DNA from: a virus
Lineage: Duplodnaviria > Heunggongvirae > Uroviricota > Caudoviricetes
Direction: 5' to 3' (one strand)
Length of the DNA: 15,282 nucleotides
IMG/VR virus record: IMGVR_UViG_2740892031_000004
Part shown: positions 1,695 through 12,994 of the stretch, piece by piece
Layout: each line of letters begins with the position of its first letter
Numbering within the stretch: position 1 is the stretch's first letter
Position numbers and translations under genes: made by a program
Notes under the pieces: generated by a model
Told to the model about the DNA's origin: nothing
Seen by the model: the letters and a program-made list of their open reading frames with translations, nothing else
Databases searched by the model: none

Positions 1695-2228
1695 TTATCT
1701 GTCGATACCCCAGCACGCCAGCGCGCTCTCCTGGTCACGACGGGATACCTGACCGTAACAGTTGTTTGAACGAATACGGCAGTCTCTGCCACCGTCCTTA
1801 ATCCACCAGCGAATCGCTTCGCAGGCACCTTTTCGATCACCAGCATTAATTCGTCTGTAAAACGTCGACGGGAAACACTTACCGGGACCAATGTTGTACG
1901 GACAGAATGACGCGATCCCCGCTTTCTGGGGTTCGGTCAGCGGCACTCTGATGTTTTTCTCCACCCACGCCAGCGCTTTATCACGCTCAATGGCGTTAAC
2001 CTGGTCGCATTTTTCCTTCGACAACTTCATGCCCGGAACGACAGGTTTGCCATCCACCATGATGGCACCACGGCAGATGGTCCAGATACCTGCACCATCA
2101 CGGTATGCTGTGGTGTGGTTGCCTTCCTTTTCATCCAGAAACTGGTCGAGAATGTCAGGCGCAGGCGCACCAGCGGCAATCAGCGCCAGAACGGCAGCCG
2201 ACAGGCCGTATTTGATTTTGGTGTTCAT
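1695..2228 (-). CDS. R: phage lysozyme (T4-lysozyme / GH24 family) with N-terminal SAR-type hydrophobic segment
   Basis: 177 aa. N-terminal GLSAAVLALIAAGAPA hydrophobic stretch, then a Glu-8aa-Asp-5aa-Thr catalytic signature (DEKEGNHTTAYRDGAGIWTICRG) as in P1 Lyz / R21-type SAR endolysins. ATG at 2226-2228; no obvious SD in the AT-rich 36-nt spacer upstream. Confidence 0.9.
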   Translation of the reverse strand: MNTKIKYGLSAAVLALIAAGAPAPDILDQFLDEKEGNHTTAYRDGAGIWTICRGAIMVDGKPVVPGMKLSKEKCDQVNAIERDKALAWVEKNIRVPLTEPQKAGIASFCPYNIGPGKCFPSTFYRRINAGDRKGACEAIRWWIKDGGRDCRIRSNNCYGQVSRRDQESALACWGIDR

Positions 2229-2264
2229 GGATATATTAAATATTCAGCCGCTGTCCCTGGCCCA

Positions 2265-3155
2265 CTAAATACGCACTTTAAGATAAGTCAGCCCCGGATG
2301 AAGCCAGTAAGCCGGCACTTTTTTAAAGGGTGGAGTATTAAAATCACGAAGAAGAGCCTCCCGCACAATTGCATCCTTATCAGCACCACTGGCCAGCGCT
2401 TCAATCTCAGCGGCTACCTGAAGATATCCCATGCAACGGCCAACGCGCTTCATCAGCCCCTGCTTTTTATTGTTCTTCAGGTAATCAATGGCAAATTCAA
2501 TGAGCTCCTCACTGTGCTGGTGCGATGGAGGTGTTACTTTCCCATTTTCTGAGATGGTTATTTTCCCAGCATCACCGGATACAACAAAGGATGGCCGGTT
2601 ACACTCCCATTCCAGCTCACTGAAATTATCATTATGAATACTGAAACACTCTGCGAGATTTCTGCTCATCACTTTCCGACAATAATCGTCAAACGCAGCA
2701 AACTGCTTTTCATCACCAGAAGGCACCAATATCGACCATTTCTTATTCAGCTCAACGACGTAGCTCTCCAGTTTTTCAATACGTGATTCAACATCATCTT
2801 TTTCTGACCGCAGTGTTGACGGCGGCATCTTCAGAGAACAAGTAATTCTTCCCGGTAGCTTTCCTTTGTAGGTTATCAACACATCCTGCGCCTCTAAAAT
2901 TACGGGGCGCTTTTCCGGCAACGGTTCGTTCCATTCACATAACCCGGCAGCAACATCCATGAAAAACTGCTTCGCCTGCTTTTTCGCCTCAGCTTCGTAA
3001 AACTCCAGCGTGGCACCTTCAGTACGGTCAAGACTAATCGCCACATCTGGCAACAACAGCGACGCTTGCCCGTCACCTTCCGGCTTCACAGTAACAGTAA
3101 CCTTATCCCCGTAATTATTTATCCCCTTAACAACCAGTTCATATTTTTTATTCAT
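2265..3155 (-). CDS. hypothetical protein (296 aa) inserted between holin and endolysin; no recognised domain
   Basis: Long clean ORF. ATG at 3153-3155 lies 4 nt after the holin TAA stop (3160-3162), with a GGGGAGAG SD inside the holin 3' end. No signal peptide or transmembrane segment seen. I do not recognise the sequence. Confidence 0.7.
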   Translation of the reverse strand: MNKKYELVVKGINNYGDKVTVTVKPEGDGQASLLLPDVAISLDRTEGATLEFYEAEAKKQAKQFFMDVAAGLCEWNEPLPEKRPVILEAQDVLITYKGKLPGRITCSLKMPPSTLRSEKDDVESRIEKLESYVVELNKKWSILVPSGDEKQFAAFDDYCRKVMSRNLAECFSIHNDNFSELEWECNRPSFVVSGDAGKITISENGKVTPPSHQHSEELIEFAIDYLKNNKKQGLMKRVGRCMGYLQVAAEIEALASGADKDAIVREALLRDFNTPPFKKVPAYWLHPGLTYLKVRI

Positions 3156-4053: not shown

Positions 4054-6015
4054 TCATGCCGCGATGTCCGCGTTGTTCACTTCCACCTTCACACTGTCAA
4101 TCAGCAGCGTATATGTCGCCGCCTTTGATATGCCTGTCAGTTGCAGTTTGTCCGCCGCCCCTGATGCCGGAGATTTCACCAGTGTGAACGGCGTCCCCCG
4201 TTTCTCATCCAGTACCGGCGTCACCTGAATGCTGTTGTTTCCGGCAAACTCAAAAGCCAGTGTGTGCCATCCGTTATCAAAGACCCCGAACGTATCCAGC
4301 TTCGCATTCGGCTTCTTGTGGTGCATCGCGTTCAGGTTCGTCGCATCCGTCTGCAGGAAGAAGGACATCAGCATGTCGTTGCCTTCCTCTGCCAGCGTCA
4401 CTCCCTCCGGCAGGGACGACAACTGCCAGTAAATGCCCAGGGCAAACTGATTCGGCACCAGTGAACCCGGCAACTTAAACCGTACGCTCACACGTCCCCC
4501 CTTCTTCAGTAACTCCACTCCCTGTCCGGCTGCATCATGCTCCAGAAACCAGATGTGGTTTTCCGGTTTATTCAGTTGCAGGGCCTTACCTCCCGTAGCC
4601 CCCGCATCACTGACCACCGCTTCAGCAATGTTTTTGTTAACATTGTCTCCGCTCGCCGGTTTGTGATAATAGCGCCAGCCCTGTGATGCCAGGTCTTCGC
4701 CGGACGCCAGCAGACTCATCAGGGTTCGGTTACTGACCGGGGCTTCCGGCTCTCTCTCCGTACCTTCACCGGAAGGTCCGGTGGGCTTCACCGTATCAGG
4801 CTGTTTTCCGGTAATGAATTCAGCGTTTCTCCCGGCATGCACAAGAATCGCCGTTGCCAGACGGTCGGAAATAATCCCACGACGTGCCCATGATCCAAAA
4901 TGCGTTTTACGGTCGGCCGTCGTCCAGGTTTTGGCGTCCGTTCGACCACCGGCTCCGTAATACCCAATATCCGCAACATCCGGATCTTCTGACGGCTCGT
5001 TGGTACCCACATTTCGCCCGTTTTCATCCGTCATAAACGGCACAAAGAAGATTTTTTTTGCGGATTTCGTCTTGTATGCACCATACACCGCATCGTATTG
5101 CGAAGAATAAGTCTGCTTCCAGTAGTAGGTCGTGTCGCCACAAATCCAGGGAACCGATGACGGAGAGCCCCCGAGACACTGACCTCCGAATTCCGACAGG
5201 TCAGAACGATATTTTTCCACCATGGAATCAAACAGCCCCGGCTGAGTGGCGTATGCACCCTGTTTCAAATCAAACTCGCCCTGCATCCAGACCACTGCAA
5301 GCAGAATATTTTTAGGGTTGGCCTTCAGTGCGGCCTGAGTACGGGTAAGCAGGTCCTTGTACAGTGGCTTATCAACACCCCAGCGTGCCGAGGTCTCGCT
5401 TGCGCTGGTGGATTCGCTGAAGGTACCTTCATCGCCCGCCAAAAATGCAGAACCACCACGGCAGCACGGAACCAGAAGAATACCGGCATTCGCCGGAATA
5501 AACGGCAACAATTTCTTCGCGATATGTAATCCCTGCCCCACGCATCCATACTGAGCTGCGCTGGCTTTCGGGTGTGAAAACTTACTCAAATCCTGAACAT
5601 CATGCAGGCAGTGGTCCGCAGGAATAATGTCATTGTAGTTACAGGACGCACCACCCGGCGTGACAGTGCTGCGACGCGCCAGCTGTTTAATACGCGGGTC
5701 CGGACGGTCATATGTCTCCGGCAGCGGAAGCCCTTCACCATACGCCATACCGTTTGACCGCCCGGCTAGGGCAACAACAAAGTAATACTCCGGGTTGCTG
5801 GTGGTGCTGATAACTGCGCCTTCTCCATCCGACGGCTTCACCACCACAGGTGTGGTGACATCACCTTCCGCCGCAATGGCCTGCATCAGGGTATAAGGCG
5901 TGATGGCCACCGGACTGCCAAATGGCTGCCACCCCTCCTTCAGTTTTTGTGTCAGTCGTTTCGCAAGGTCTGACGGCGATGCCGCCCTGACAACATCATA
6001 GTGTTTAAATGCCAT
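4054..6015 (-). CDS. nanS-p: prophage NanS-p-type sialate O-acetylesterase (DUF1737 N-terminus plus SASA esterase region)
   Basis: 653 aa from ATG at 6013-6015 (ORF track gives 658 aa from 6030, which lacks an SD). N-terminus MAFKHYDVV...EGWQPFGSPV matches the DUF1737 pattern seen in the large yjhS/nanS-like proteins downstream of stx in EHEC prophages. Same position relative to Q and S as in Stx phages. Confidence 0.75.
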   Translation of the reverse strand: MAFKHYDVVRAASPSDLAKRLTQKLKEGWQPFGSPVAITPYTLMQAIAAEGDVTTPVVVKPSDGEGAVISTTSNPEYYFVVALAGRSNGMAYGEGLPLPETYDRPDPRIKQLARRSTVTPGGASCNYNDIIPADHCLHDVQDLSKFSHPKASAAQYGCVGQGLHIAKKLLPFIPANAGILLVPCCRGGSAFLAGDEGTFSESTSASETSARWGVDKPLYKDLLTRTQAALKANPKNILLAVVWMQGEFDLKQGAYATQPGLFDSMVEKYRSDLSEFGGQCLGGSPSSVPWICGDTTYYWKQTYSSQYDAVYGAYKTKSAKKIFFVPFMTDENGRNVGTNEPSEDPDVADIGYYGAGGRTDAKTWTTADRKTHFGSWARRGIISDRLATAILVHAGRNAEFITGKQPDTVKPTGPSGEGTEREPEAPVSNRTLMSLLASGEDLASQGWRYYHKPASGDNVNKNIAEAVVSDAGATGGKALQLNKPENHIWFLEHDAAGQGVELLKKGGRVSVRFKLPGSLVPNQFALGIYWQLSSLPEGVTLAEEGNDMLMSFFLQTDATNLNAMHHKKPNAKLDTFGVFDNGWHTLAFEFAGNNSIQVTPVLDEKRGTPFTLVKSPASGAADKLQLTGISKAATYTLLIDSVKVEVNNADIAA

Positions 6016-6625: not shown

Positions 6626-6667
6626 TCTGACAAAATCAATATAAACAGCCCCTCCGGAGAGGGGCTG
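6626..6667 (-). terminator. candidate intrinsic terminator (minus strand)
   Basis: GC-rich 9-bp stem CAGCCCCTC / GAGGGGCTG (6646-6667) with 4-nt loop, followed on the minus strand by UUUAUAUUGAUUUUG. Confidence 0.4.
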
Positions 6668-6981
6668 GAGAGTGGCGCTATGTGCCATTGCATGATGCCG
6701 GGTGCCTCCCGGTGAGTTCAGTATCAGCACCTGAACCCGCACAGAAAGGATAAGGGTCGGTGACAAAACACCAGTTGCTGATTGCCCCTCCGCACAGGGG
6801 GATTCACCATGCCAGTTTCTTTTAACAAACTCCCCGCAAACCAGACAACAGTCAACCGCCTGAATTGTGAGGTATTTAAAAATTTCTCCAGATAACTGAT
6901 ACCCGGCTAACAGTCTGGCGTTTTCTTTTTCAGCAACGGGAAAGCAACAACCACCACACCCACCAGCCGCCCATTTACCAC

Positions 6982-8352: not shown

Positions 8353-9402
8353 TTACCCAAGCACGCCAGTTGCAAAGGCGTGATCAAGAAAACGAAAAAT
8401 TAAATCAACCTGAGAACCATGCTTTTCTTCGAACGCCAGAGGATCCGCATGAAGCTCGTTGTGATGCTCCCGACACAGCGGTAGCGTGAAAATATCGTGA
8501 GATTTTGTCCCCATTCCGCCCTGACCATGACCAATCAGGTGATGGGGATCGTCGGCTGGCTTACCACAACACGCACACGGCTGTGTCTTCACCCAGCGTT
8601 TGTATTTCTCGTTAACCCAGCGGCGACGTTTAGGTCGTTTCATGAAAGATTCCGGAGACTCAGGATCAACGGCAATGCTGACCACCGTCTTTTCCTGTGG
8701 TGGGTTCTGTTGCTGGTGGGCGTGAGGCAGCGGCGCAATATTTTTTGTGCGCTGTTTCAGTATGCTGGTGGCGGTCTGCTCTCCCGGTACGATGTCGCTT
8801 TCACGGTACATTGAGCGGATTTTTTCCGCACGCAACCCCAGCGAACGACGTAATACCACTTCCGGTAGCGCGTCCGCCACCTGATTGCGGACCGCCCACC
8901 AGGATAATTCAGCCAGAGATAATTCACGCTCCTGCGTACCGCTTATTGCGTGACCGATGACGTCAATCATCCATGCTGACAGGTTTTGATGAGCAAGTTG
9001 CTCGAGTGATTCGGATGTCTGGTCACGCAGCTGGTTATCGCAGTGCCAGCACAACACCATTGCGCCGGTACCATAACGGTGAATGACGGTTTCGCTGTGA
9101 TGATAATCGCCGTGTGGCCACTGGCAGGATTTAATATGGCGCAACAGCCAGTCAGACAATGCACCAGCACCACCAGCAGCACGAATCACCCGTGCGTTAC
9201 TGAAAAACGGCAGCAATGTTTTGTCTTCCACCAGCGGCTGGCGAGCGGCAGGAACGACCCCGGACGGCAGATTACGCATGCTTTTCGGTTCCGGCTCCAC
9301 CAGTAACCGGGTATTGTGGAATACCGGCATGGATTCACGGCCCGGCTTAACGATCACCAGCCCGAGTTCCGGTACCAGAACAGATCGAAGTAATACCCGC
9401 AC
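8353..9402 (-). CDS. DUF968-family phage protein (YdfU-like) with C-terminal HNH/zinc-finger-like motif
   Basis: 349 aa (GTG start at 9402; alternative ATG at 9328-9330). C-terminal CACCGK...DPHHLIGHG...CREHHNELH is an HNH-like Cys/His cluster. Size and position (between rem-like and Q) match Qin-prophage ydfU. Confidence 0.75.
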   Translation of the reverse strand: MRVLLRSVLVPELGLVIVKPGRESMPVFHNTRLLVEPEPKSMRNLPSGVVPAARQPLVEDKTLLPFFSNARVIRAAGGAGALSDWLLRHIKSCQWPHGDYHHSETVIHRYGTGAMVLCWHCDNQLRDQTSESLEQLAHQNLSAWMIDVIGHAISGTQERELSLAELSWWAVRNQVADALPEVVLRRSLGLRAEKIRSMYRESDIVPGEQTATSILKQRTKNIAPLPHAHQQQNPPQEKTVVSIAVDPESPESFMKRPKRRRWVNEKYKRWVKTQPCACCGKPADDPHHLIGHGQGGMGTKSHDIFTLPLCREHHNELHADPLAFEEKHGSQVDLIFRFLDHAFATGVLG

Positions 9403-9403
9403 G

Positions 9404-9682
9404 TTACCTCCAGATGCGTTGCTGGAATGTGCGGGACGGACGCGGTGGGCGTTCGGAGTAAGGAAGCCTGACGGAGATTATCCAGTGACGATAATCGAGG
9501 CTGAGGGCTTTCTTAATCTCGTATCCGTGTCTGCGGTAGCACTGAATTAGCCACTCGGCCTGTTCTTCAGTGCATGGGGGATGCTGGAACCAGTCAGATT
9601 TGAAAGTGCGGGAACACCGCCCGTGCCTGCTGGCAAAGACGGCAGAATCATCAGAATTGTGTAATTTGGTATCGTGCGCCAT
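9404..9682 (-). CDS. small hypothetical protein (92 aa), positionally rem-like
   Basis: ATG at 9680-9682; the ORF-track N-terminal extension (GTG 9811) would run through the hok terminator, so the internal ATG is preferred. Lies between hok and the DUF968 gene as rem does in Qin; sequence identity not confirmed. Confidence 0.45.
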   Translation of the reverse strand: MAHDTKLHNSDDSAVFASRHGRCSRTFKSDWFQHPPCTEEQAEWLIQCYRRHGYEIKKALSLDYRHWIISVRLPYSERPPRPSRTFQQRIWR

Positions 9683-9750
9683 CGGTTGTCTCTGCTGGCG
9701 CAGCAGGTGCCAGTTGTTCAGGCTGGCGTGCGAATTGTAAACCAGAATGC

Positions 9751-9781
9751 CAGGAAAAAACAAAACCCGCCGAAGCGGGTT
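9751..9781 (-). terminator. intrinsic terminator ending the hok transcript
   Basis: Stem AACCCGC / GCGGGTT (9764-9781) with CGAA loop; on the minus strand followed by TTGTTTTTTCC. About 70 nt downstream of the hok stop. Confidence 0.6.
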
Positions 9782-9848
9782 AAGTGCGGGTGCGTTGAGG
9801 ATGCCTGACACATCAGAGGTGGCGAGGGATTCTCCCCCGCCTGGTCTC

Positions 9849-10004
9849 TTACTCCTCAGGTTCGTAAGCTGTGAAGACAGTGACCTCCGTCTGGCCGGTT
9901 CGGATTCGTACCTCGCAGAGGTCTTTCCTCGTTACCAGTGCCGTCATTATGACGGTTAAACAGATGACGATCAGGGCGATTAACATCGCCTTTTGCTGCT
10001 TCAT
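9849..10004 (-). CDS. hokD: Hok/Gef-family type I toxin (51 aa)
   Basis: Minus-strand translation MKQQKAMLIALIVICLTVIMTALVTRKDLCEVRIRTGQTEVTVFTAYEPEE matches the Hok family and is nearly identical to my recollection of HokD/RelF. AAGGAG SD 9 nt upstream of the ATG at 10002-10004. Below the 60-aa cutoff, so absent from the ORF track. Confidence 0.85.
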   Translation of the reverse strand: MKQQKAMLIALIVICLTVIMTALVTRKDLCEVRIRTGQTEVTVFTAYEPEE

Positions 10005-10260
10005 AGCCTGCTTCTCCTTGACCTTTCGGTCCGTAAGAGGCTAATCTCTATGTGTCGCATAGATATGGCCTCAGATTAATGTTAAGCGTCTTGCAGGACC
10101 GCGTAATGTTAACTGGGGCTTTTCTCTATCTGCCTTTTGGTGTTCATGCCTGAGACAGATAGCCTCAAGCACCCGCAGTCATTCTACTTAACTAAGATTT
10201 CCCCGCAAACCGTTTTTGTCCGGCACAGTAAATATCCAACTAAACCAATGGCGTTCGCTG
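10005..10260 (-). promoter_or_regulatory. hok mRNA leader region (expected site of mok overlap and sok-type antisense control)
   Basis: Non-coding stretch upstream of hok. Hok loci normally carry a long structured leader with an antisense RNA; the individual elements were not resolved here. Confidence 0.3.
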
Positions 10261-10263
10261 TAT

Positions 10264-10443
10264 TTACCGCCAGTATTCAATGCACATGACCGCCATGAAC
10301 ACCCCTAAAAAAAGGGCATTTATATGTCCAAACATTAATATCAAAACATCAACTTTTTCCATATACCTTGCTGTGAAGATGATGGGCATACATGATGCGA
10401 ACAACCAGAACGCAACAAACAAAAACTGCAATGCGTTTTTCAT
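10264..10443 (-). CDS. small membrane peptide (59 aa, two hydrophobic helices) in an AT-rich islet
   Basis: ATG at 10441-10443 with GGGGGA upstream; MKNALQFLFVAFWLFASCMPIIFTARYMEKVDVLILMFGHINALFLGVFMAVMCIEYWR. Flanked by AT-rich non-coding sequence (10444-10613). Confidence 0.4.
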   Translation of the reverse strand: MKNALQFLFVAFWLFASCMPIIFTARYMEKVDVLILMFGHINALFLGVFMAVMCIEYWR

Positions 10444-10613
10444 TATTCCCCCTACAATCAATGTGCAATAACATTTAAACACACCTCAATTTGGCCGGAC
10501 ATATAAATATCTAAACCAGAAAAAATCACTTACATAGCGTTACAAACTCTTTAGTCTAAATATTCATCGCAAAATATTCCCCATACTTATCAGCCCGTTC
10601 TGCGCCAGGTAGC

Positions 10614-10928
10614 TCATTGCCTTATCTGGGAATCTGTAATCAGGTTTCCGGATGCTGGTGGATTTTCGCGTTTTAGTTGTTCATAAAAGTGCACAGCTTT
10701 AACCAGTTCTTCTGATGTCACCGGAACTGGCGGGGCAGCGAATAAGGCCTGAATTTCATAGTTCGGCCTGTCGTTGCAATCCTCTTTTGTCGGTACATAT
10801 TTCCAGTCACCAACCCACAGATTCTCCTGAAAGTCCGTAACGCCTTTTTTCACGTAGCGATATCGCCATGCAACTGGTTTTGCCTGCCCTGCCGTTTCAT
10901 GCCCTTCCTGATAATTAATCTCGCTCAT
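10614..10928 (-). CDS. hypothetical phage protein (104 aa) with MSEINYQ N-terminus
   Basis: ATG at 10926-10928 overlaps the upstream gene stop (ATGA). Shares its first 7 codons with the Ea22-like gene at 13657. Confidence 0.6.
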   Translation of the reverse strand: MSEINYQEGHETAGQAKPVAWRYRYVKKGVTDFQENLWVGDWKYVPTKEDCNDRPNYEIQALFAAPPVPVTSEELVKAVHFYEQLKRENPPASGNLITDSQIRQ

Positions 10929-11658: not shown

Positions 11659-11749
11659 TAGACTGGCCCCCTGAATCTCCAGACAACCAATATCACTTAT
11701 TTAAGTGATAGTCTTAATACTAGTTTTTAGACTAGTCATTGGAGAACAG

Positions 11750-12115
11750 ATGATTGATGTCTTAGGGCCGGAGAAACGCAGACGGCGTACCACACAGGAA
11801 AAGATCGCAATTGTTCAGCAGAGCTTTGAACCGGGGATGACGGTCTCCCTCGTTGCCCGGCAACATGGTGTAGCAGCCAGCCAGTTATTTCTCTGGCGTA
11901 AGCAATACCAGGAAGGAAGTCTTACTGCTGTCGCCGCCGGAGAACAGGTTGTTCCTGCCTCTGAACTTGCTGCCGCCATGAAGCAGATTAAAGAACTCCA
12001 GCGCCTGCTCGGCAAGAAAACGATGGAAAATGAACTCCTCAAAGAAGCCGTTGAATATGGACGGGCAAAAAAGTGGATAGCGCACGCGCCCTTATTGCCC
12101 GGGGATGGGGAGTAA
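11750..12115 (+). CDS. insC: IS2 OrfA (InsC)
   Basis: 121 aa, [40 protein letters not shown]... matches recalled InsC. ORF track starts at an upstream GTG (11705). Confidence 0.9.
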
Positions 12116-12978
12116 GCTTAGTCAGCCGTTGTCTCCGGGTGTCGCGTGCGCAGTTGCACGTCATTCTCAGACGAACCGATGACTGGATGGATGGCCGCCG
12201 CAGTCGTCACACTGATGATACGGATGTGCTTCTCCGTATACACCATGTTATCGGAGAGCTGCCCACGTATGGTTATCGTCGGGTATGGGCGCTGCTTCGC
12301 AGACAGGCAGAACTTGATGGTATGCCTGCGATCAATGCCAAACGTGTTTACCGGATCATGCGCCAGAATGCGCTGTTGCTTGAGCGAAAACCTGCTGTAC
12401 CGCCATCGAAACGGGCACATACAGGCAGAGTGGCCGTGAAAGAAAGCAATCAGCGATGGTGCTCTGACGGGTTCGAGTTCTGCTGTGATAACGGAGAGAG
12501 ACTGCGTGTCACGTTCGCGCTGGACTGCTGTGATCGTGAGGCACTGCACTGGGCGGTCACTACCGGCGGCTTCAACAGTGAAACAGTACAGGACGTCATG
12601 CTGGGAGCGGTGGAACGCCGCTTCGGCAACGATCTTCCGTCGTCTCCAGTGGAGTGGCTGACGGATAATGGTTCATGCTACCGGGCTAATGAAACACGCC
12701 AGTTCGCCCGGATGTTGGGACTTGAACCGAAGAACACGGCGGTGCGGAGTCCGGAGAGTAACGGAATAGCAGAGAGCTTCGTGAAAACGATAAAGCGTGA
12801 CTACATCAGTATCATGCCCAAACCAGACGGGTTAACGGCAGCAAAGAACCTTGCAGAGGCGTTCGAGCATTATAACGAATGGCATCCGCATAGTGCGCTG
12901 GGTTATCGCTCGCCACGGGAATATCTGCGGCAGCGGGCTTGTAATGGGTTAAGTGATAACAGATGTCTGGAAATATAG
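12073..12978 (+). CDS. insD: IS2 OrfB transposase (InsD), DDE-type
   Basis: 301 aa, [34 protein letters not shown]... matches recalled InsD; overlaps insC as expected for the frameshift-fused IS3-family transposase. Confidence 0.9.
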
Positions 12979-12989
12979 GGGCAAATCCA

Positions 12990-12994
12990 GAGGG
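12990..12994. repeat. IS2 target-site duplication, right copy (GAGGG)
   Basis: Identical to 11654-11658. Confidence 0.8.

Follow-up and report, generated by a model that had tools for sequence, protein, structure and literature searches.

The interval 9754..10209 very probably represents a hok/mok/sok cassette, a type I toxin-antitoxin module of the hokD/hokW clade, which is complete and resides in the early (nin-like) region of a lambdoid prophage of Escherichia coli. The stretch of DNA analysed here, 15,282 nt long and hereafter called the window, matches a lambdoid prophage in E. coli strain B2.3 over its whole length with 99.8% identity, and positions 9751..10260 enclose the entire module, from a putative -35 hexamer at 10209 to the T-run of a terminator near 9754. 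The locus is an already known kind of element in its usual form.

The toxin gene is an open reading frame (ORF) on the minus strand that runs from an ATG at 10004 to its end at 9849 and is translated as MKQQKAMLIALIVICLTVIMTALVTRKDLCEVRIRTGQTEVTVFTAYEPEE. This ORF matches the Pfam family HOK_GEF (PF01848) with E=3.5e-22 (78 bits, the cutoff being 22) and PHROG 251, 'MokW-like host killing', at 3.1e-32, and its translation shares 96% amino acid identity with K-12 HokD. The predicted product is a small membrane toxin of the Hok/Gef family. An identical protein is found on at least 999 public contigs, where it is labelled HokD. The toxin gene and its immediate surroundings comprise the following features:

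9849..10004, minus strand: hok (HokD-type) toxin coding sequence, 51 amino acids, from the ORF and its translation, Pfam and PHROG
10014..10019, minus strand: hok Shine-Dalgarno sequence AAGGAG, 9 nt 5' of the ATG, kept in the K-12, 933W and R1-type loci
9863..9866, minus strand: TACG motif at the Tyr47 codon, the TadA A-to-I editing site reported for hokD
9754..9781, minus strand: intrinsic terminator of the hok mRNA, a 7-bp stem (5 G-C) with a UUCG loop and a T-run
9404..9682: ORF of 92 amino acids between hok and the DUF968 gene, PHROG 1212 (function unknown)
8353..9402, minus strand: DUF968 (ydfU-like) gene, downstream of hok
10264..10443, minus strand: ORF of 59 amino acids with two hydrophobic segments, inside an AT-rich stretch

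The original prediction had described a hok gene with a strong Shine-Dalgarno sequence, a terminator of its own and an AT-rich upstream neighbour with a small membrane ORF, and each of these was recovered. The terminator consists of a hairpin at 9781..9764 and a T-run ending near 9754; it is common to most related loci, although phage 933W has none at that position. The AT-rich stretch 5' of hok has a GC content of 0.35-0.41 over about 10200..10600, compared with about 0.55 downstream, and its 59-residue ORF matches no Pfam or PHROG family. The proposed gene order hok-rem-DUF968 held only in part, since the DUF968 gene does lie downstream but K-12 Rem has no hit in the window; the ORF at 9682..9404 corresponds to a stretch of K-12 that lies between ydfU and rem and has no annotation. 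In the B2.3 annotation, hok is preceded by nin-like genes, IS2 and replication genes, and is followed by a gene for a 92-residue hypothetical protein, DUF968, RusA and a Q-like DUF1133 gene. In the consensus fold, CAG/CUG closes a 9-nt loop that contains the TACG motif, and editing at the aligned Tyr has been reported for hokC, hokD and hokE (PMC5630033).

Upstream of the toxin gene, positions 10174..10002 match Rfam RF01794 ('sok') over the full model (1-157 of 157) with 106.4 bits, well above the gathering score of 59 (E=8.8e-24). Since RF01794 models the hok leader and is matched here by the hok-sense strand, this result is evidence for the fold of the leader and not for the antisense RNA itself. 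With a transcription start predicted at about 10174 and the ATG at 10004, the leader would be about 170 nt long, shorter than the 250 nt first proposed. When the leader was compared with known hok/sok loci, every classical regulatory element could be placed:

10204..10209, minus strand: putative -35 of the hok promoter, TTTGCG, 17 nt upstream of the -10, a weak match
10181..10186, minus strand: putative -10 of the hok promoter, TAGAAT, 6 nt ahead of the first base of the Rfam match
9757..10174, minus strand: predicted full-length hok mRNA, 418 nt, from the putative 5' end (Rfam start) to the terminator
10163..10174, minus strand: tac (translational activator element), GGGUGCUUGAGG, pairs with fbi
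10113..10120, minus strand: ucb (upstream complementary box, or anti-Shine-Dalgarno of mok), AGCCCCAG, pairs with the mok Shine-Dalgarno region
10067..10074, minus strand: mok Shine-Dalgarno region, CUGAGGCC, with GAGG at 10072..10069, 8 nt before the mok ATG
10001..10060, minus strand: mok frame of 19 codons, MRHIEISLLRTERSRRSRL, whose stop TGA overlaps the hok ATG (ATGA)
10033..10044, minus strand: dcb (downstream complementary box), UUAGCCUCUUAC, a block conserved in the R1-type locus
9788..9800, minus strand: fbi (fold-back inhibitory element), CCUCAACGCACCC, pairs with tac and is retained in K-12
10018..10047, plus strand: putative Sok promoter, -35 TTGACC at 10018..10023, an 18-nt spacer and -10 TAATCT at 10042..10047, at the position homologous to the sokW promoter
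About 10054..10124, plus strand: predicted Sok antisense RNA of about 71 nt, mapped from annotated sokW, with both ends inferred

Homology among the phage copies of the module begins at about 10220, some 45 nt 5' of the predicted RNA start, which suggests that the module carries its own promoter. The sequence TAGAA(T) is conserved at the -10 position in at least 83 of 99 related loci, and TTTGC/TTGGC recurs at the -35 position. A sigma-70 consensus scan of 9650..10650 called no promoter on either strand, and the -10 hexamers that we assign to hok and Sok agree with the consensus at only 3-4 of 6 positions each; both assignments are for this reason based on homology and on what is conserved in the 99 loci.

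The predicted structure of the hok RNA agrees with this placement. The minimum free energy (MFE) fold of the 418-nt RNA reaches -163.8 kcal/mol (z = -7.1 relative to shuffled sequences) and pairs tac with fbi, and ucb with the mok Shine-Dalgarno region. We collected 120 hokD-type loci from IMG/VR and aligned their 84 distinct sequences. In the RNAalifold consensus, the tac/fbi pairs are kept in 84 of 84 sequences, a figure to be read with the selection of these loci by a tac pattern, and the ucb/mok Shine-Dalgarno pairs in 82-84 of 84, while seven other pairs show compensatory changes. Within the sampled clade tac and fbi are invariant, partly as a result of that selection, and the covariation of their helix is that seen in the comparison with plasmid R1. 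There, GGCGC/GCGCC of the window is replaced by GGGUGC/GCACCC in an R1-type locus, with both sides changed, and the cognate duplexes (-19.3 kcal/mol for the window and -17.0 for the R1-type locus) are predicted to be more stable than the crosses (-15.6 and -13.3). Such a predicted preference for the cognate partner across the two loci is the covariation that classically defines the family.

The hok/mok/sok locus of R1, represented here by an R1-type IncFII locus obtained through its Hok protein, has the same architecture and order of elements as the window. Both match RF01794, and the conserved blocks include tac, ucb (AGCCCC), dcb (UAGCCUCUUAC), the hok Shine-Dalgarno and start region (CAAGGAGAAG.AGGC.AUGAA) and the context of the Tyr codon (GCUUACGAA), although the nucleotide identity over aligned columns is only about 74%. 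A distant blastn search of plasmids with the module recovered hokD-type copies and not R1 itself. The R1 mok has 70 codons in another frame and overlaps hok, whereas the window mok has 19 codons. Furthermore, the carrier of the R1 locus is a plasmid and not a prophage, and it is for R1 that post-segregational killing has been shown.

The second predicted state of the leader is visible at the level of its local hairpin. The mok Shine-Dalgarno GAGGC and the dcb GCCUC are paired in the Rfam consensus structure, and this hairpin is kept in local folds of all 26 natural variants of the region. However, the MFE fold of the 3'-truncated hok RNA (10174..9801) does not contain the Rfam tac/ucb stem and forms a local 5' hairpin instead. 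The refolding switch from the full-length to the active hok RNA is thus one that we infer, and not one that we claim from single-sequence thermodynamics.

On the opposite strand, the predicted Sok RNA is identical to SokW at 66 of 74 aligned columns and is complementary to the mok Shine-Dalgarno sequence and start. Its fold (-25.5 kcal/mol) has a single-stranded 5' tail and a long terminator-like hairpin followed by UUUU. The putative Sok promoter reads TTGACC-18-TAATCT in the window and TTGCCT-17-TAACCT in sokW; the window type is found in 17 of 99 loci and the sokW type in 82. Antitoxin activity is lost when the -10 region of sokW is mutated (PMC8621323). The original prediction had offered, as one of two options, a cryptic sok-like antisense RNA in the leader; a predicted Sok gene and the fold-back elements are indeed present, but in the canonical arrangement.

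Modelled on the hok/sok system of plasmid R1 (PMC9841398) and on hokW/sokW, the cassette would operate as follows. A weak promoter of its own, with the -10 TAGAAT, would give rise to the 418-nt hok mRNA, and this full-length RNA would be translationally silent, with tac bound to fbi and the ribosome-binding site of mok covered by ucb. Slow trimming from the 3' end would then remove fbi, upon which the leader would refold and expose the mok Shine-Dalgarno sequence in the hairpin with dcb. Ribosomes translating the 19 codons of mok would reach the hok Shine-Dalgarno sequence and ATG through the ATGA overlap and so switch on Hok synthesis. Sok, a constitutive and short-lived RNA transcribed from a promoter inside the mok-hok junction, would pair with the mok Shine-Dalgarno sequence and start, blocking the translation of mok and hence of hok and marking the duplex for RNase III. 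Hok would therefore be made, and the inner membrane damaged, only once the supply of Sok stops, as could happen upon prophage loss or by transcriptional interference during induction.

The absence of relBE had raised the question of whether hok is an unregulated relic, that is, an orphan gene lacking both the relBE driver and antisense control, which would be either silent or freely expressed from its strong Shine-Dalgarno sequence. The relBE genes are indeed absent upstream, K-12 RelB and RelE having no tblastn hit anywhere in the window, and the negative promoter scan would also fit such a relic. However, the locus retains in conserved form its full leader, the mok frame, the predicted Sok gene, the tac/fbi pair and the terminator, the exact Hok protein recurs on the many contigs mentioned above, the module is widespread in E. 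coli, and a freely translated Hok would be lethal. In addition, it is the relBE-linked copy that lacks the regulatory elements. We consider the relic reading highly improbable.

The relBE-linked copy in question is hokD (relF, in the relBEF operon) of the K-12 cryptic prophage Qin, which encodes an orthologous toxin. Its coding sequence, 3' UTR, fbi and terminator share 97.7% nucleotide identity with the window over 9756..10018, and in both loci a DUF968/ydfU gene lies downstream, but rem, which separates hokD from ydfU in K-12, is absent from the window. Homology ends 14 nt before the ATG, at window position 10018, where relE abuts. The K-12 copy consequently has no hok promoter, tac, ucb, mok or sok, whereas fbi and the terminator are kept. 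The loss of its own leader and promoter explains the established dependence of K-12 hokD on the relBE promoter. Searches with K-12 RelB, RelE, Rem, YdfT, YdfV and FlxA gave no hits in the window or in the near-identical B2.3 genome; HokD and YdfU were the only queries from the K-12 neighbourhood to hit either. The B2.3 genome does encode a RelE/ParE-RelB pair about 8.2 kb upstream of hok, outside the window, but this pair is unrelated to K-12 RelBE at E<=1e-3, and an origin of the K-12 junction by a simple deletion between relBE and hok therefore finds no support in these data.

In a set of 5426 complete E. coli genomes, hok with its leader was found in 4025 and the junction of relE with hokD in 1165. 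The leader-bearing form is thus the common state, most likely the ancestral one, and no anomaly. As judged from the alignment, K-12 Qin hokD is a derived copy in which a rearrangement put relBE in place of everything upstream of position -14. The view of the missing relBE as an anomaly of the window is in this way inverted, since it is K-12 that has the rearranged, leaderless copy, and the K-12 relBE-hokD arrangement should not serve as the reference state.

The closest relative of the window module is hokW/mokW/sokW of Shiga-toxin phage 933W and Sakai prophage Sp5 (AF125520), which belongs to the same clade, is likewise carried by a lambdoid prophage and has mokW, hokW and the SokW RNA annotated. 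Window positions 9778..10220, from the promoter to fbi, are 90.8% identical to it in nucleotides, and 45 of 51 Hok residues are the same. The two loci have in common the 170-nt leader, tac, ucb, the Shine-Dalgarno/dcb hairpin, fbi and, as predicted for the window, a Sok of about 71 nt with a near-identical terminator hairpin. They differ in the 5' tail of Sok and its target, and in location, the 933W module lying at the far right end of the phage genome and not in a nin-like early region. Experiments have established the hokW-sokW locus as a working type I system, in which the antitoxin requires the sokW promoter (PMC8621323).

The two loci also differ in the mok frame. In 933W, mokW is an in-frame extension of hokW by 19 codons (57 nt), whereas the window mok starts 56 nt before the hok ATG (at 10060), is out of frame with hok and has its stop on the hok ATG. 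This layout can be derived from that of hokW by deleting 2 nt from the hairpin loop and inserting 1 nt (GGTCAAGG); the insertion also creates the Sok -35 TTGACC with its 18-nt spacer. The 108 hokD-type loci sampled for this purpose are distributed as follows:

87 of 108: mok in frame with hok, 57 nt
12 of 108: window type, 56 nt
6 of 108: R1-like frame, 58 nt
3 of 108: K-12-like, leaderless

Mutagenesis of R1 has shown that mok needs to be translated only as far as the hok start (PMC9841398), and for this reason all three mok-bearing layouts should be functional for hok. Translational coupling between mok and hok at the window locus, where the mok frame differs from that of the validated hokW, is accordingly expected by analogy, and the minority layout is the only, and mild, peculiarity of the module.

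An unlikely alternative, in our estimate, is an intact but physiologically silent locus, which would not kill upon loss or stress and in which Hok may be kept permanently off, for instance by the mok layout of 56 nt or by the Sok -35 (TTGACC), stronger than that of sokW. The mok frame is a minority variant, the Sok -35 is nearer to the consensus than that of sokW, and the retained Tyr47 (TAC) may, by analogy with HokB, need TadA editing to Cys for full toxicity (PMC5630033). Moreover, as summarised in a recent preprint (bioRxiv 10.1101/2025.08.07.668861), chromosomal hok loci were reported to show neither post-segregational killing nor a response to rifampicin, and the same source relays that the intact chromosomal hokA, hokB and hokC were reported not to mediate such killing (Pedersen and Gerdes 1999). 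On the other hand, hokW-sokW, the nearest relative to have been tested, is an active locus that reacts to prophage induction (PMC8621323), overexpressed Hok homologues were toxic in 42 of 45 cases tested, with HokD as a toxic control, and a mok stop at the hok ATG is expected to favour coupling, given that translation up to the hok start suffices in R1. The occurrence of the window-type variant in at least 10 independent IMG/VR contigs also argues against a recent inactivating lesion.

For an active cassette, the biological role could lie in prophage addiction, in phage defence or, as has been suggested for Sp5, in assisting lysis at induction. A role mainly for the phage at induction, as opposed to addiction or defence, is possible but not the likelier outcome: read-through from the early operon would override the convergent Sok promoter, and Hok made late would help lysis and release, as has been proposed for hokW of Sp5. 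Consistent with this, hok is on the same strand as all neighbouring phage genes, and the sole terminator-like site in 9650..10650 lies downstream of hok, so that with no terminator upstream, read-through at induction could extend the hok RNA and interfere with the Sok promoter. Upon mitomycin C treatment of Sp5, sokW is lost and HokW appears in a RecA-dependent manner, and the phage yield is halved without the hokW-sokW locus (PMC8621323); interference by read-through is in line with these data but speculative. However, the 933W/Sp5 module lies elsewhere in its genome, so the read-through geometry is not shared, and the B2.3 prophage, which contains IS2 and several pseudogenes, may not be inducible.

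The hairpin at the mok start is the only hypervariable patch of the module, with the 26 variants noted above, and it is also the target of the Sok 5' tail. The duplex of Sok with its own target is predicted at -38.8 kcal/mol, compared with -18.4 kcal/mol for the cross with the sokW type. It is conceivable, though doubtful, that the cassettes of the hokD/hokW clade found in E. coli prophages have diversified into mutually orthogonal specificity types through this patch, whose variation goes along with small indels that set the mok frame at 56, 57 or 58 nt and also alter the Sok promoter. If so, the window type would be a distinct regulatory variant whose Sok gives no cross-protection against co-resident hok modules, and every prophage would retain an addiction or lysis timer of its own. 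The mok frame variants, together with the variable patch targeted by the Sok tail, lend themselves to the study of antisense specificity between type I modules that reside in the same cell, an incremental question; otherwise the locus has little significance beyond its correct annotation. A prophage gene labelled hokD is normally accompanied by a mok frame and a predicted Sok RNA. In the PGAP and public annotation only the toxin is marked, and these two are left unannotated.

The module of the hokD clade contains a single hypervariable patch, at about window positions 10045..10066 (columns 109-132 of the alignment of hokD-clade loci collected from IMG/VR). This patch makes up the upper stem and the loop of the hairpin at the mok start, and the 5' tail of Sok, the predicted antisense RNA, targets the same stretch. 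Column entropy in the patch reaches 0.58-0.78 bits, while it stays at or below 0.31 in the rest of the leader and the CDS, and the hairpin itself is retained in every one of the 26 patch variants. The first 20 nt of the window Sok have a pairing energy of -38.8 kcal/mol on their own target, compared with -18.4 kcal/mol on the target of phage 933W. The number of places with a hokD-type module in E. coli genomes has a median of 2 and a maximum of 9-11, so the Sok specificities may be orthogonal between modules.

Within the hok coding sequence, the codon for Tyr47 is a TAC that lies inside TACG (window 9863..9866, minus strand), which the predicted fold places in a 9-nt loop. TadA-mediated A-to-I editing, changing Tyr to Cys, has been reported in this TACG context for the mRNAs of hokC, hokD and hokE (PMC5630033).

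At the 3' end, the homology between the window and 933W stops just beyond the fold-back inhibitory element (fbi). The window, K-12 and most IMG/VR loci have a terminator hairpin, CCCGC-UUCG-GCGGG, after fbi, whereas hokW of 933W is devoid of it; the 3' end of the hokW mRNA must arise in another way.

Two small ORFs flank the module; the K-12 MG1655 counterpart of the first is listed with them:

Window 9404..9682, minus strand: 92-aa ORF between hok and the DUF968 gene, PHROG 1212
K-12 MG1655 Qin region (L003) 4310..4585, equal to about 1644309..1644584 of NC_000913: homologue of the 92-aa PHROG 1212 ORF
Window 10264..10443, minus strand: 59-aa ORF in the AT-rich islet, whose product contains two hydrophobic segments

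The K-12 homologue of the 92-aa ORF is intact, 77% identical and free of stops, and is located between ydfU and rem; the NC_000913 record has no annotated feature over it. The AT-rich islet (window 10230..10600, GC 0.35-0.41) lies directly upstream of the hok promoter. Its 59-aa protein has no match in Pfam or PHROG, and the exact protein is present on at least 1000 contigs under the labels 'hypothetical' or 'membrane protein'. Among the IMG/VR loci, 16 of 99 have this ORF alongside hok, as do about 1068 of the 5426 E. coli genomes. The islet with this protein looks like a moron.

The prophage of strain B2.3 also encodes a RelE/ParE-RelB type II pair (L002, the B2.3 prophage region, 1913..2384), which adjoins the immunity region; it lies some 8.2 kb upstream of hok and thus beyond the window. 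It shows no sequence relationship to K-12 RelBE at E<=1e-3. These prophages may commonly have a type II pair close to their immunity region. An IS2 element (window about 11705..12993, orfA/orfB on the plus strand) splits an ead/Ea22-like gene. The annotation of the near-identical genome lists several genes near it as pseudogenes, so the prophage may be defective. Finally, a full-length Rfam match to the STnc100 sRNA family (window 6637..6841, minus strand; 133.5 bits, threshold 47) adjoins iraM on the downstream side of the gene for the Q-like DUF1133 antiterminator; it may represent the promoter-proximal region of the late transcript of the prophage.
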